The notes beneath the pieces are model-generated. The model saw only the letters and a program-made list of their open reading frames with translations, was not told the origin of the DNA and did no database searches. A program made the translations under genes and the position numbers. Positions 1,666-56,014 of a stretch of DNA of 64,000 bases are shown here, in pieces (position 1 is the first letter of the stretch; each line of letters begins with the position of its first letter). The stretch lies in sequence record PZ534512.1; one strand, written 5' to 3'. The stretch comes from a phage.

Positions 1666-2331
1666 ATGTTCCATTACACTTATAAAATAACAAATAAAAT
1701 TAATAATAAAATCTATATAGGCGCTCATTCTACCGAAAATTTAGATGATGGATATATGGGTTCTGGTAAATTATTAAAAAGAGCCCAAGACAAGTATGGT
1801 ATAGAAAATTTCTCTAAAGAAATATTAGAGTTCTTTGACGATAAAACCTCTATGTTTGAGTCAGAAAAGAATATTGTGACTGAAGAGTTTTTAAAGCGCC
1901 CTGACGTTTATAATTTGAAATTAGGTGGTGAAGGTGGTTGGGACCATTTAAACACTGAAGAATATTTGGATAAAAAGAAAGAAGCTTCCTTAAAAGGAGT
2001 TGCCGCTTTTAAAACCAGATTTGAGAACGACCCAGACCTTAAAGAAAAATATCGTAAAATGGGTTCAGAAAGGTTTAAACAGCTTTGGGATAATCCTAAG
2101 TATAGAGAGAAATTTTTAAATACTAAATCTTTCTTGGGTAAGACCCATACTCCTGAAACTATTAATAAAATGAAAGAATCTCACGCCAGAAATAAACACC
2201 AACAGGGCGAAAAGAATTCCCAATTTGGTATGATGTGGATTCATTCATTAGATGAAAAAGTTTCTAAACGTATTAAGAAAACTGACCCAATTCCAGAAGG
2301 ATGGTTTAAAGGTCGAAAAATGAAATTTTAA
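1666..2331 (+). CDS. segB: GIY-YIG homing endonuclease SegB
   Basis: 221 aa, YTYKITN..KIYIG motif, GGEGG; lies inside the tRNA cluster as in T4. Confidence 0.8.
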   Translation: MFHYTYKITNKINNKIYIGAHSTENLDDGYMGSGKLLKRAQDKYGIENFSKEILEFFDDKTSMFESEKNIVTEEFLKRPDVYNLKLGGEGGWDHLNTEEYLDKKKEASLKGVAAFKTRFENDPDLKEKYRKMGSERFKQLWDNPKYREKFLNTKSFLGKTHTPETINKMKESHARNKHQQGEKNSQFGMMWIHSLDEKVSKRIKKTDPIPEGWFKGRKMKF

Positions 2332-7335: not shown

Positions 7336-7866
<531 letters not shown>

Positions 7867-17583: not shown

Positions 17584-18593
17584 TGAAAACAGTAATGAAA
17601 AGCTATTTTGGTAGTCATCTTTATGGAACTTCTACTCCAGAATCTGATGTAGATTTTAAAGAAATCTTTGTTCCTCCTGCTCGTGATATTCTTATCGGAA
17701 ATGTTAAAGAGCATATGAGTAAAAACACTAACAACACATCATCTAAAAACACTAAAGATGATATTGACCATGAACTATACAGTCTTAAGTATTTCTTTAA
17801 ATTAGCAGCAGATGGTGAAACTGTAGCATTGGATATGCTCCACACTCCACCGGAACTAGTAGTTAAATCTGATTTGCCTGATGTATGGAAGTTTATTCAA
17901 GACAATCGTTCTCGTTTTTATACGACCAACATGAAATCCTACTTAGGATATGTTCGCAAGCAAGCTTCTAAATACGGTGTTAAAGGTTCTCGTTTGGCCG
18001 CATTACGCGATGTATTGAAAGTAGTTAATCAAATCCCCGATCAGTGGGTTGATTACCAAGAAGATGGTTCTATTAAGCAGCGTCGCACTAAAGTTGAAGA
18101 TATTAAGCATCGTCTTCCAGAAAACGAATTCTGTGAATGGGTGTTCCATAATCATGAGAAAACAGGTCCACAGACGTTTTACACAGTGTTGGGTCGTAAA
18201 TATCAGACAACGCTTTCTCTTATTGAGCTTAAGCAGTCACTGAACAAATTAGATGCTGAATATGGTGAACGTGCTCGTAAGGCCGAAGCCAACGAAGGCA
18301 TTGACTGGAAAGCTCTGAGCCATGCCTGTCGTGGTGGACTTCAACTATTGGAAATTTACAAAACTGGCGACTTGGTTTATCCACTTCAAGACGCTCCATT
18401 TATTCTCGACGTGAAGTTGGGTAAACATCCATTTAAAACAGTTCAAGAGTTTTTGGAAGATGTGGTCGATCAAGTAGAAGCAGCATCTACTGAAGCTTCT
18501 AAGAACGGTATGCAGCAAAAAGTAGACATGGGTTTCTGGGATGACTTCCTTGAGAAGGTCTATCTTGAAAACCACCGAAGTTATTATAAATGA
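17580..18593 (+). CDS. Pol-beta-superfamily nucleotidyltransferase-like protein (337 aa; T4 nrdC.11 position)
   Basis: hG[GS]...DxD motif YGSHLYGTSTPESDVDF near N-terminus. Confidence 0.6.
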   Translation: MMKTVMKSYFGSHLYGTSTPESDVDFKEIFVPPARDILIGNVKEHMSKNTNNTSSKNTKDDIDHELYSLKYFFKLAADGETVALDMLHTPPELVVKSDLPDVWKFIQDNRSRFYTTNMKSYLGYVRKQASKYGVKGSRLAALRDVLKVVNQIPDQWVDYQEDGSIKQRRTKVEDIKHRLPENEFCEWVFHNHEKTGPQTFYTVLGRKYQTTLSLIELKQSLNKLDAEYGERARKAEANEGIDWKALSHACRGGLQLLEIYKTGDLVYPLQDAPFILDVKLGKHPFKTVQEFLEDVVDQVEAASTEASKNGMQQKVDMGFWDDFLEKVYLENHRSYYK

Positions 18594-19676: not shown

Positions 19677-20392
19677 AAAAATATTTTACTATCTATAAAA
19701 CTGAAATATTAAATTTAAAGACAGGTATTAAGAAATACTATTATGGTCGACATATAACTAATAACATCAATGATTCGTATGTTGGTAGTGGAAATTATAT
19801 AGAACGTGTAAAAGTGTCAAATGACCACATATTATCAAAAACGGTTTTAGAAGTTTTTGATAATTATGATAAAATGGTACAAGCTGAAATATTATATATC
19901 ATGGCAGGTAAATTGAAATATGGAAAAAACTGTGTTAACCTGTCATACGGGGGTGAAGGAGGAAAGGTTGCAGATGAAACTAGGATAAAATGCAAAAAGC
20001 ATTCTATAAATTTATGGAAAAATCCTAATCATATACAGCATATGAAGAAAAAGATGAAAGAGGTCACATCCACGCCGGAAGCTAAATTAAACACTTCAAT
20101 AAAAACTTCGCAACGATATAAGGACCCAGTTTTTGTTAGAAAAGTTAGTAATATTATTAAAAAGAAACTAAGCAATCCTGTAGTAAAAGAAAAGCATATT
20201 AATGGAATTAAAGCTGCAAAGCGTTCTCATTTAACTATATGGCAATATGAAGATGAATTATTCGAGCTTTGGAAAGAAACTAAATATGGATGGAGAAAAT
20301 TTACAAAGGAAGCTATAAAACACGGGTATCCAAATGAACCGTATCGTAGTATGGTATCAACCTTTCAGAAAAGACATTTAGAAGAATCCTAA
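19673..20392 (+). CDS. GIY-YIG homing endonuclease (Seg-like)
   Basis: TIYKTE...KYYYGRH and SYGGEGG motifs shared with SegB; AT-rich codon usage. Confidence 0.6.
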   Translation: MKKYFTIYKTEILNLKTGIKKYYYGRHITNNINDSYVGSGNYIERVKVSNDHILSKTVLEVFDNYDKMVQAEILYIMAGKLKYGKNCVNLSYGGEGGKVADETRIKCKKHSINLWKNPNHIQHMKKKMKEVTSTPEAKLNTSIKTSQRYKDPVFVRKVSNIIKKKLSNPVVKEKHINGIKAAKRSHLTIWQYEDELFELWKETKYGWRKFTKEAIKHGYPNEPYRSMVSTFQKRHLEES

Positions 20393-31152: not shown

Positions 31153-31464
31153 ATGATTAGTTTTGAGCGGTATGTGGTAGAGAGTTTGAAGGGTTTTGAT
31201 ATGTTCGGTAATGACTATTATTTTTACGAATGTAGTCTAAATCCTAGTTTTTGGGCTGGACGTGAACGAGATCTCGAAGAAATTAATGCTCGTGCCGAAT
31301 TGTTAGGTGAACTGCCTACGGTTTATTTTACCTTTGATGCATCTGGATTTGTTATCCAGGTTTATTTTCCTGAAGAAAACTCTGGTGAGGATTCTGTTAA
31401 TCCTCCTTATTGGGCTTACCAAGGAATTATTTCTCGTGGAACAAAACTTGAACTTAAAGAATAA
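31153..31464 (+). CDS. hypothetical protein (103 aa)
   Basis: tight spacing to upstream gene. Confidence 0.5.
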   Translation: MISFERYVVESLKGFDMFGNDYYFYECSLNPSFWAGRERDLEEINARAELLGELPTVYFTFDASGFVIQVYFPEENSGEDSVNPPYWAYQGIISRGTKLELKE

Positions 31465-52439: not shown

Positions 52440-52733
52440 ATGAAAAAATTTATTTTTGCTACAATTTTTACTTTGGCTTCTTGTGCTGCTCAGCCTGCTA
52501 TGGCAGGATATGATAAAGATTTGTGCGAATGGTCTATGACTGCAGATCAGACTGAAGTTGAAACTCAAATTGAAGCGGATATTATGAATATCGTTGAGCG
52601 CGATCGTCCTGAAATGAAAGCTGAAGTGCAAAAACAGCTTAAGTCTGGTGGTGTAATGCAGTATAATTATGTTCTGTATTGTGATAAAAACTTTAATAAT
52701 AAAAATATCATCGCTGAAGTGGTAGGTGAATAA
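52440..52733 (+). CDS. sp: periplasmic protein Spackle-like
   Basis: 97 aa; signal peptide with LASC lipobox-like site. Confidence 0.6.
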   Translation: MKKFIFATIFTLASCAAQPAMAGYDKDLCEWSMTADQTEVETQIEADIMNIVERDRPEMKAEVQKQLKSGGVMQYNYVLYCDKNFNNKNIIAEVVGE

Positions 52734-53884: not shown

Positions 53885-54913
53885 ATGTCATCAATACCTT
53901 GGATTGATAATGAGTTTGCGTATCGTGCATTGGCTCATTTACCTAAATTCACACAAGTAAATAATAGTTCAACTTTTAAATTACGGTTTAGATGCCCTGT
54001 TTGCGGAGATTCAAAAACCGACCAAAATAAAGCCCGTGGATGGTATTATGGTGATAATAATGAAGGAAATATTCATTGTTATAACTGTAACTATCATGCA
54101 CCAATCGGAATATATTTAAAGGAGTTTGAACCTGATTTATATCGTGAGTATATCTTTGAAATAAGAAAAGAAAAAGGTAAAAGTCGTCCAGTAGAAAAAC
54201 CTAAAGAACTTCCTAAACAACCTGAGAAGAAAATAATTAAATCTCTTCCGTCATGTGTTAGATTAGATAAACTGGCGGAAGACCATCCAATTATAAAATA
54301 TGTAAAAGCTCGTTGTATTCCAAAGGATAAATGGAAATATCTTTGGTTTACAACCGAATGGCCTAAATTAGTTAATAGCATAGCACCGGGAACATATAAA
54401 AAGGAAATACCTGAGCCTCGTCTTGTTATTCCAATTTATAATGCTAATGGAAAAGCTGAGTCTTTTCAAGGACGTGCATTAAAGAAAGATGCTCCCCAAA
54501 AATATATCACTATCAAAGCTTATCCTGAAGCAACAAAAATCTATGGAGTCGAACGAGTTAAAGATGGTGATGTATATGTTCTAGAAGGACCTATAGATTC
54601 ACTTTTTATTGAAAATGGTATAGCTATTACAGGTGGTCAATTAGACCTAGAAGTTGTTCCATTTAAAGATAGACGTGTGTGGGTTTTAGATAATGAACCT
54701 CGTCACCCTGACACTATTAAACGAATGACTAAATTAGTTGATGCAGGAGAAAGGGTTATGTTTTGGGATAAATCTCCCTGGAAATCAAAAGATGTTAATG
54801 ATATGATTAGAAAGGAAGGTGCAACCCCTGAACAAATTATGGAATATATGAAAAATAATATTGCCCAGGGGTTGATGGCTAAAATGCGGCTATCTAAATA
54901 TGCTAAGATTTAA
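53885..54913 (+). CDS. 61: DNA primase gp61
   Basis: 342 aa; N-terminal zinc ribbon CPVCGDS...CYNC; TOPRIM region. Confidence 0.93.
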   Translation: MSSIPWIDNEFAYRALAHLPKFTQVNNSSTFKLRFRCPVCGDSKTDQNKARGWYYGDNNEGNIHCYNCNYHAPIGIYLKEFEPDLYREYIFEIRKEKGKSRPVEKPKELPKQPEKKIIKSLPSCVRLDKLAEDHPIIKYVKARCIPKDKWKYLWFTTEWPKLVNSIAPGTYKKEIPEPRLVIPIYNANGKAESFQGRALKKDAPQKYITIKAYPEATKIYGVERVKDGDVYVLEGPIDSLFIENGIAITGGQLDLEVVPFKDRRVWVLDNEPRHPDTIKRMTKLVDAGERVMFWDKSPWKSKDVNDMIRKEGATPEQIMEYMKNNIAQGLMAKMRLSKYAKI

Positions 54914-55110
54914 ATTAACCCAACTAAAGCAAATGCTAAATCTACGAATGTATCAAGAGTAACTACTGGAATATTAATACCATGTGCAATTGCAACAGGT
55001 GATAAAATAAAGTTCCAGAGTAAAATTCCTACCATAGCAGAAATAGTAAAAGCTATACGCTTTTTATTACCTTTTATGGCATTAATAAGTGCCATTAATT
55101 TTTGTACCAT
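54910..55110 (-). CDS. antisense small membrane protein (66 aa)
   Basis: only intergenic minus-strand ORF; AAGGAGG 4 nt upstream of ATG; two hydrophobic helices; stop overlaps gene 61 stop. Confidence 0.5.
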   Translation of the reverse strand: MVQKLMALINAIKGNKKRIAFTISAMVGILLWNFILSPVAIAHGINIPVVTLDTFVDLAFALVGLI

Positions 55111-55122
55111 ATGTCCTCCTTA

Positions 55123-55147
55123 TTGCTTTATATATTTATTGTATAAT
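55123..55147 (+). promoter_or_regulatory. MotA-dependent middle promoter candidate for gene 56
   Basis: MotA box TTGCTTTA, 11 nt spacer, -10 TATAAT. Confidence 0.55.
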
Positions 55148-55181: not shown

Positions 55182-55700
55182 ATGGCTTACTTTAATGAAT
55201 GTAGTCAACTGATTGAAGGCGCTGATAAAGCTCAAAATGAATACTGGGATATTCTCGGTGATGAAAAAGACCCGCTGCAAGTTATGCTTGATATGCAGAA
55301 ATCTCTGCAGGTTCGTTTAGCTAAAGATAAACCTGAATATAATCGTCATCCTGATGACTTGGCTACTGCAGGCGAAGTTGTTGATTGGCTGCGCAATCAG
55401 AAAGATTATATTGATGATGAATTCCGCGAACTTCTGACTTCTCTTGGTGGTATGAGCAATGGCGAAAAAGATGCGTCTGCTGTATGGAAACCTTGGAAGT
55501 CACAGCATGGTGAACGCCGTGAAACTTTAATTACTGATTTGTCTCCACAAGACCAGTTGGAAATTAAATTCGAAATGATTGATATTCTTCATTTCGTTCT
55601 GAACATGTTCCAAGGTCTCGGTCTTACGGCTGAAGAAATCTTTAAACTTTATTATCTGAAAAATGCTGAAAATTTCGCTCGTCAAGACCGAGGTTATTAA
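55182..55700 (+). CDS. 56: dCTP pyrophosphatase gp56 (MazG-like)
   Basis: 172 aa from MAYFNECSQ; AAGGAAAAATA RBS. Confidence 0.85.
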   Translation: MAYFNECSQLIEGADKAQNEYWDILGDEKDPLQVMLDMQKSLQVRLAKDKPEYNRHPDDLATAGEVVDWLRNQKDYIDDEFRELLTSLGGMSNGEKDASAVWKPWKSQHGERRETLITDLSPQDQLEIKFEMIDILHFVLNMFQGLGLTAEEIFKLYYLKNAENFARQDRGY

Positions 55701-55768: not shown

Positions 55769-56014
55769 ATGGCTAGTACTCGCGGTTATGTTAATATCAA
55801 AACATTTGAGCAGAAATTAGATGGAAATAAGAAAATTGAAGGAAAGGAAATTTCTGTAGCTTTCCCTCTTTATTCTGACGTTCACAAAATTTCTGGTGCT
55901 CATTACCAGACATTCCCTTCAGAAAAAGCAGCATATTCTACAGTATATGAAGAAAATCAACGTGATGCATGGATTACTGCAAACGAAGATTTGTGGAAAG
56001 TAACTGGTGAATAA
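55769..56014 (+). CDS. soc: small outer capsid protein Soc
   Basis: 81 aa MASTRGYVNIKTFEQKLDGNKKIEGKEISVAFPLYSDVHK; near-identical to T4 Soc. Confidence 0.92.
   Translation: MASTRGYVNIKTFEQKLDGNKKIEGKEISVAFPLYSDVHKISGAHYQTFPSEKAAYSTVYEENQRDAWITANEDLWKVTGE

Follow-up and report, generated by a model that had tools for sequence, protein, structure and literature searches.

What does a single open reading frame (ORF) running against all its neighbours do between the primase and dCTPase genes of a T4-like phage, in the very interval where T4 carries the dam methyltransferase gene? This question is raised by a stretch of 64,000 nt of record PZ534512.1 (hereafter the window), which represents the early region of a Tequatrovirus, with early genes on the plus strand and its nearest database relatives about 97% identical. 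The ORF (54910..55110, minus strand) encodes a 66-residue protein (MVQKLMALINAIKGNKKRIAFTISAMVGILLWNFILSPVAIAHGINIPVVTLDTFVDLAFALVGLI) and sits inside the 268-nt gap between gene 61 and gene 56. An earlier note on this DNA had singled it out as the only minus-strand ORF to fall in an intergenic gap, with a near-perfect Shine-Dalgarno element, a 4-nt spacer and a stop codon set tail-to-tail over that of gene 61, and each of these features is present. On a crude gene map of 123 plus-strand ORFs, which cover 91% of the window, it is the sole minus-strand ATG-initiated ORF of at least 40 residues that has at least 70% of its length outside plus-strand ORFs. Its AAGGAGG element, one of only three such heptamers in the whole 64 kb, is unpaired in the predicted fold of the 5' end of the mRNA, and its stop (complement of 54910-54912) overlaps the TAA of gene 61 (54911-54913). 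The note had gone on to suggest that a small membrane protein is carried here in place of Dam; we find instead a conserved gene that is independent of dam.

Because the DNA is AT-rich, the length of the ORF is not significant by itself, and it is conservation that decides whether a gene is present. The profile phrog_2024, placed by PHROG in the category 'unknown function', matches the translated ORF over its full length (E-value 9.6e-32, residues 2-66 against profile positions 1-65 of 65). By tblastn, 693 phage records carry the ORF, 687 of them over at least 80% of its length, and essentially all Tequatrovirus are included; about 503 records have it at 80-100% identity and about 190, from Mosigvirus and Gaprivervirus, at 46-59%. 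The close carriers are nearly as numerous as the records that match the window at 90% identity or more over the 61-to-soc region, of which there are 505. In all 17 sequences sampled from three genera the reading frame is intact. Pairwise ratios of nonsynonymous to synonymous change (dN/dS) range from 0.10 to 0.46, with synonymous sites near saturation between genera (proportion of synonymous differences, pS, 0.55-0.76). Variable alignment columns are distributed over the three codon positions as 45/21/56, and this pattern, with position 2 varying least, is absent from the other five frames. The AGGAG of the Shine-Dalgarno element is conserved across all genera examined. Taken together, these comparisons indicate that the ORF is a genuine gene for a small hydrophobic protein, conserved in T4-type phages. 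The gene is also already known: hundreds of GenBank records annotate its product as hypothetical, and the deposited proteins include one from Shigella phage ESh18 that is 100% identical to that of the window. In the literature searched, we found no paper that mentions it.

Mosigvirus, Gaprivervirus, Moonvirus and Jiaodavirus each have homologues, 28-57% identical, that lie antisense at the corresponding position; those of Moonvirus and Jiaodavirus, at 28-32% identity, encode 63-65 residues. When the Jiaodavirus protein is itself used as tblastn query, the family extends to the Salmonella S16 group (Gelderlandvirus), one Karamvirus and a Proteus phage, and in the Gelderlandvirus and Karamvirus records listed the match overlaps or adjoins the annotated primase gene. 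An antisense ORF beside the 3' end of the primase gene is seen in AR1, T4, Lutter, MM02, Moon, KP182 and the S16 group, the exception being DK-13, where a homing-endonuclease gene is inserted between primase and ORF. In Slopekvirus KP15 and Krischvirus FL04 the primase gene abuts that of dCTPase with no antisense ORF there, and in Karamvirus VIPECLOM01 the ORF was not found at the primase site. When 1.84 billion representative proteins were searched in full with HMMER, no genuine member emerged outside T4-like phages; three long repeat proteins that scored in this search were rejected as artefacts, their scores being sums of weak matches to tandem repeats. A search with a profile of the five-genus alignment retrieved 84 proteins, every one of them a hypothetical protein of a T4-like phage. 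From these comparisons we conclude that the ORF is a Tevenvirinae-specific insertion at the junction of genes 61 and 56, since held by purifying selection.

How the ORF relates to dam is apparent from T4 itself. In the reference genome NC_000866 the 61-56 interval does hold dam, as the earlier note had stated, and an unannotated gap of 309 bp separates the gene 61 stop from the dam start. This gap contains the same ORF, intact at 66 residues and 97% identical (3 residues differ), at 17738..17938 on the plus strand of that record, likewise with an AAGGAGG Shine-Dalgarno element and a tail-to-tail stop overlap with gene 61. The ORF is annotated in none of the T4 records NC_000866, AF158101, the 1984 record X01416 and a T4 strain record; the exact T4 protein has no NCBI protein entry, raw-read assemblies being its only source in the protein collection. 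Lutter and PhiZZ30 also combine the ORF with dam, along with a 186-residue ORF upstream of dam. Because T4, Lutter and PhiZZ30 carry both, the ORF does not replace dam, and the suggestion that a membrane protein stands here instead of the methyltransferase fails once the interval is compared across T-even genomes. Alignment of the junctions shows that the T4 dam cassette is precisely missing from the window, between ...CCTCCTT and ATTGCTT...; the left junction is the Shine-Dalgarno element of the ORF read on the other strand, and the right one is the mot-box in the middle promoter of gene 56. By tblastn, about 182 phage records encode a Dam with 90% identity or more to that of T4, against the approximately 503 that carry the ORF. 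A dam-less layout collinear with the window is found in AR1, PST and many others, with the ORF annotated there as hypothetical. As judged from these alignments, dam is a neighbouring presence/absence cassette whose polymorphism is independent of the ORF.

Within the window, the reported lack of any methyltransferase-like ORF was upheld: T4 Dam as tblastn query gives no homologue in the 64 kb (best E-value 0.32), and there is no DPPY motif. The only NPPY motif, in a 103-residue ORF (31153-31464), was considered as a hidden methyltransferase and rejected, the ORF being too short and the motif most likely coincidental. One AAGGAGG heptamer lies at 31402-31408 on the strand opposite this ORF, whose NPPY is at 31399. 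That the whole phage lacks Dam is plausible: the claim stands for the window, 64 kb cannot prove it for a genome of which another 100 kb or so lies outside view, and Shigella phage SH-1, whose complete genome (168.7 kb) has the primase-ORF-gp56 arrangement of the window, contains no T4-Dam homologue at E-values up to 1. The absence of segF between gene 56 and soc was likewise confirmed, the two genes being 68 nt apart. The gene 56 allele of the window is 73% identical to T4 gp56 at the protein level, and the flanking primase gene and the small ORF show 95-98% identity to their T4 counterparts. Tequatrovirus has two divergent gene 56 alleles in circulation, and the one found here fits a segF-less, T2-type allele, in keeping with SegF homing. 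The dam-less, segF-less layout is an ordinary and common polymorphism.

The predicted protein is strongly hydrophobic, with a grand average of hydropathy (GRAVY) of 1.25 and a 19-residue hydropathy peak of 1.98 at residues 19-37. Its five Lys/Arg residues all lie within residues 4-18, and its two Asp residues are at positions 53 and 57. AlphaFold2 (mean predicted local distance difference test, pLDDT, 82) returns an amphipathic helix at 2-12, a helix of membrane-spanning length at 16-42 and a third helix at 52-63, with a Pro-containing turn at 43-51 between the last two. The two hydrophobic helices proposed in the earlier note are approximately right: one is a clear transmembrane helix; the second is shorter, hydrophobic or amphipathic, and does not make a full span. 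Across five genera, K13, W32, N33, P38, G44, P48, L52 and G64 are invariant, and the consensus reads W-N-[FY]-x4-P-x-A-x2-[HY]-G-x3-P-x2-P-L-[DE]. The segment before the transmembrane helix carries net positive charge in all five aligned genera; beyond the helix the net charge turns negative, except in Jiaodavirus KP182, where it is zero. Because this charge distribution fits the positive-inside rule, an N-in/C-out topology is favoured, in which the acidic amphipathic C-terminal helix probably lies at the periplasmic face. Residence in the inner membrane is strongly implied by the sequence. Pfam, NCBIfam and PADLOC gave no match for the protein, and Foldseek returned only family members from BFVD and nothing from the PDB.

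The direction of the ORF bears on when it could be expressed. In T4, early and middle transcripts all have one polarity and only late ones run either way (PMC2988020), so that a clockwise ORF such as this one would have to be late. The T4 late promoter is an 8-bp TATAAATA box; among 50 late sites listed, 32 are perfect and 9 have A for T at -13, the commonest variant (PMC2988020). Upstream of the ORF lies AATAAATA, which agrees with the consensus TATAAATA at seven of eight positions. The ATAAATA portion is found as NATAAATA 19-29 nt upstream of the ATG in four genera, the box being AATAAATA in dam-minus Tequatrovirus and in Mosigvirus, GATAAATA in dam-plus Tequatrovirus, and CATAAATA in Gaprivervirus and Jiaodavirus. 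The flanks of dam-plus and dam-minus Tequatrovirus are not homologous, yet ATAAATA is present in both. In the window this heptamer is scarce, with 14 occurrences observed against 42.7 +/- 6.8 expected, an approximately three-fold under-representation. Of the 13 other sites, at least six precede convincing ATG gene starts by 13-40 nt, among them those of lysozyme e (two boxes), soc, gene 49 and a GIY-YIG gene; the gene 49 box is AATAAATA, the same variant as that of the ORF. Perfect TATAAATA boxes number seven in the window, all on the plus strand. On these signals the ORF is probably transcribed late, as a candidate gp55-dependent unit.

The putative late box falls in the 11-nt spacer of the MotA-type middle promoter of gene 56, on the opposite strand, and a stretch of about 25 bp (55122-55147) thereby holds two interleaved promoters of different temporal class, one on each strand. 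The middle promoter has a T4 homologue, P(M)16.53, with mot-box and -10 element annotated in X01416, and the function of the promoter here is predicted from that homology. According to the T4 record, the homologous middle-promoter transcript, that of gene 56, doubles as the oriA primer RNA.

We propose that the ORF is an accessory Tevenvirinae gene, expressed late and independent of dam, that encodes a membrane protein, and we regard this account, guess at function included, as reasonably probable. The ORF would have been inserted at the junction of genes 61 and 56 in clockwise, that is late, orientation, and then kept by purifying selection, with dam a cassette next to it that T4 has and the window lacks. 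Only a late promoter, dependent on gp55, gp33 and gp45, could read a clockwise ORF, and AATAAATA at 55133-55140 on the minus strand is the candidate; a late start from it would yield a leader of about 15 nt bearing the strong Shine-Dalgarno element. The 66-residue product would open with a basic, cytoplasmic, amphipathic N-terminal helix (residues 2-12, then KGNKKR), cross the membrane in one long helix (16-42) associated with the invariant W-N...P...(H/Y)G motif, and pass through a Pro-rich turn into a short acidic amphipathic C-terminal helix, probably on the periplasmic face. It would act late in the inner membrane. Our best guess is that this small protein modulates another protein of the envelope, through which envelope integrity, lysis timing or exclusion might be affected.

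Several observations weigh against this proposal. No genus has a perfect TATAAATA box, and Moonvirus lacks a clean box altogether; never reaching the perfect consensus, the late promoter of the ORF may be weak. No minus-strand terminator follows the ORF in Tequatrovirus, and a late transcript would run on antisense into gene 61. The AlphaFold2 model was built on a shallow alignment of 11 sequences, and the C-terminal helix could be a second, re-entrant membrane segment. Pfam, NCBIfam, PADLOC, the PDB and BFVD offer no relative of known function, and the data point to no specific partner or process. Nor does any orphan T4 genetic locus map at the ORF, because rIV is sp; an orphan rapid-lysis locus had been entertained and was dropped on that ground.

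A bolder version of the proposal would make the ORF an overlooked, near-universal late Tevenvirinae gene, in T4 as elsewhere, with a real role in the late envelope, for example in lysis timing or inhibition, superinfection or anti-defence. Such a role could lie in the timing of lysis, in lysis inhibition, in resistance to lysis from without or to superinfection, or in evading membrane-based host defence, and the obligatory clockwise orientation beside gene 61, with a promoter interleaved with the gene 56 (oriA primer) middle promoter, might couple the ORF to the early-to-late switch. We consider this version doubtful.

It is unlikely, in our estimate a shade more so than the bolder version, that the product is a holin or another dedicated lysis protein, such as an antiholin or a pinholin-like protein, which permeabilizes the inner membrane late in infection or times that event. 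The small size, the transmembrane segment and the late-type promoter would suit such a protein, as would the two acidic residues on one face of the C-terminal helix, and homologues are labelled 'Holin' or 'putative holin' in two records (the UniRef entry for OE5505, and KP1079). All other records say hypothetical, however, phrog_2024 is of 'unknown function', no Pfam holin family matches even at E-values up to 10, and NCBIfam gives no match; the two labels are unsupported. The protein also lacks a charged C-terminal tail, ending in ...DLAFALVGLI with its charges N-terminal. Moreover, the lysis genes are unlinked: the start of lysozyme e, near 7370, is about 48 kb from the ORF, whose neighbours encode primase and dCTPase. 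T-even phages already have the holin T, the antiholins RI and RIII, and spanins. The ORF product is probably not itself a pore-forming holin, and its role as a modulator of another envelope protein remains our preferred guess.

Less likely again is a function exerted mainly by RNA, in which the late transcript or the convergent overlap would supply antisense RNA against gene 61 and read-through early mRNAs, perhaps in the manner of a type I toxin-antitoxin system, with the peptide secondary. The ORF is indeed convergent with the primase gene, overlapping or adjoining it, in every ORF-bearing genus examined, and the other flank varies (dam, a homing-endonuclease gene, small NTP-pyrophosphohydrolase genes); no minus-strand terminator intervenes between the ORF and gene 61, and early-strand transcription crosses the entire ORF antisense. 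Against this, the protein is under purifying selection, with its motif persisting at 28% identity, and overlap with gene 61 is not obligatory, as a homing-endonuclease gene intervenes in DK-13 and a GC-rich hairpin, located between the ORF and primase stops, in Jiaodavirus. The scanned region yielded no dedicated promoter for an antisense small RNA; its five sigma-70-like matches compare with 4.3 expected from shuffling, and none is tied to antisense RNA. The only antisense RNA foreseeable for the hydrophobic peptide is read-through mRNA from gene 61. Because the protein is selected and because the DK-13 gene and the Jiaodavirus hairpin separate the ORF from primase, an RNA-level role of the convergent late transcript may be an additional function but would not be the main one.

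A terminator-like hairpin with a T-run (ATGGCATTAATAAGTGCCAT) on the early strand lies within the N-terminal codons of the ORF, its stem (55076-55095) about 165 nt past the gene 61 stop; it is present in T4 too, where X01416 leaves it unannotated, and is seen only in Tequatrovirus, being missing from Mosigvirus and Gaprivervirus. That the ORF is a chance frame in a spacer kept for other reasons (a terminator after gene 61, or the promoters of dam and 56) is most improbable: ORFs of about 66 codons are common by chance in AT-rich DNA, this hairpin is there and T4 curators never annotated the ORF, but the frame is open in seven genera despite saturated synonymous divergence, dN/dS stays under 0.5, the expected codon-position pattern is seen in this frame and not in the other five, and the Shine-Dalgarno element is conserved outside Tequatrovirus whereas the hairpin is not, so that a conserved terminator was rejected as the reason for conservation.

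For the window itself, the ORF is an ordinary, catalogued hypothetical gene, and the remaining interest lies in its omission from the T4 reference. T4 is among the best-annotated viruses, and a 'gap' in its reference hides a gene conserved in at least seven genera. Adding the ORF to the T4 annotation would make it visible to transcriptomic and proteomic work on T4; the single convenient tryptic peptide, LMAL(V/I)NAIK, may explain why proteomics has missed the product, the remainder of which would be a hydrophobic peptide of about 48 residues. T4 genetics would gain a putative small late membrane protein for assays of lysis, exclusion and anti-defence.

Coordinates of the ORF, its signals and the surrounding features are collected in the table below. 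Further observations concern the wider setting. Inside the 3' end of gene 61, at about 54810-54870, lies an inverted repeat, CAACCCCTGAAC ... GCCCAGGGGTTG, with arms about 40 nt apart; it forms the strongest stem predicted on late-strand RNA downstream of the ORF, has no U-run after it, and has a predicted counterpart in Mosigvirus. The junction of primase, small ORF and gene 56 is an insertion hotspot, with extra genes in DK-13, Moon, Lutter and PhiZZ30. Elsewhere in the window, a cluster of eight tRNA genes (Gln, Leu, Gly, Pro, Ser, Thr, Met, Arg) occupies 1053-2411, as in T4, and a GIY-YIG homing-endonuclease-like ORF from about 1669 is preceded by CATAAATA.

Table. Features of the 61-56 interval and related loci; positions refer to the window unless another record or locus is named.
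Feature	Position	Strand	Remarks
66-aa ORF, family phrog_2024	54910..55110	-	ATG start; named RB32ORF030w in the RB14 record
Shine-Dalgarno AAGGAGG	55115..55121	-	4-nt spacer (ACAT) before the ORF ATG
Late-promoter-like box AATAAATA	55133..55140	-	22 nt upstream of the ATG, followed by AT-rich TATAAAG
MotA-type middle promoter of gene 56	55124..55147	+	TGCTTTA 55124-55130, 11-nt spacer, TATAAT 55142-55147
Terminator-like hairpin and T-run	55076..55105	+ (early strand)	-8.9 kcal/mol
Spackle	52440-52733	+	
Small ORFs at the positions of 61.2 and 61.1	between spackle and gene 61	+	
Gene 61, DNA primase	53885..54913	+	convergent with the ORF, stops overlap
Gene 56, dCTPase	55182..55700	+	non-T4 allele
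soc	55769-56014	+	68 nt from gene 56
GIY-YIG relative, one of only two in the window	1669-1938		
GIY-YIG relative, the other of the two	19691-20272		
T4 box GATAAATA	NC_000866, ~17709-17716		upstream of the T4 ORF
Homing-endonuclease gene between primase and ORF	DK-13 locus L005, 2872-3621		
Three extra ORFs	Moon locus L019, 829-1599	+	include a small NTP pyrophosphohydrolase
186-aa ORF upstream of dam	Lutter locus L002, 2326-2886		

Comparison with known systems places the ORF as follows. The T4 Dam cassette shares the 61-56 interval and directly adjoins the ORF, but is unrelated to it in sequence, strand and function; it occurs together with the ORF in T4, T2 and Lutter, whereas the window and most Tequatroviruses are without it. 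Class II holins and pinholins, of about 70 residues (phage 21 S68, for example), resemble the ORF product in size, hydrophobicity and presumed late expression; the product differs from them in having only one clear transmembrane helix and in lacking a sequence or profile match, a charged C-terminal tail and linkage to endolysin or spanin genes. The T4 late genes embedded in early regions (soc, e and 49), whose TATAAATA box precedes the start by 13-30 nt, are like the ORF in box, AT-rich stretch, Shine-Dalgarno element, ATG and spacing. They are co-oriented with the early genes, however, whereas the ORF alone in the 64-kb window lies on the opposite strand, with a box that overlaps the middle-promoter spacer of the other strand. 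Its fullest likeness is to the phrog_2024 or RB32ORF030w-type proteins, such as AR1_033 (YP_009167844.1), Lutter KMC16_gp032 and Moon ACQ46_gp035: this family comprises proteins of 62-68 residues encoded antisense directly downstream of primase, the same arrangement as here, and the ORF is a full member of it.

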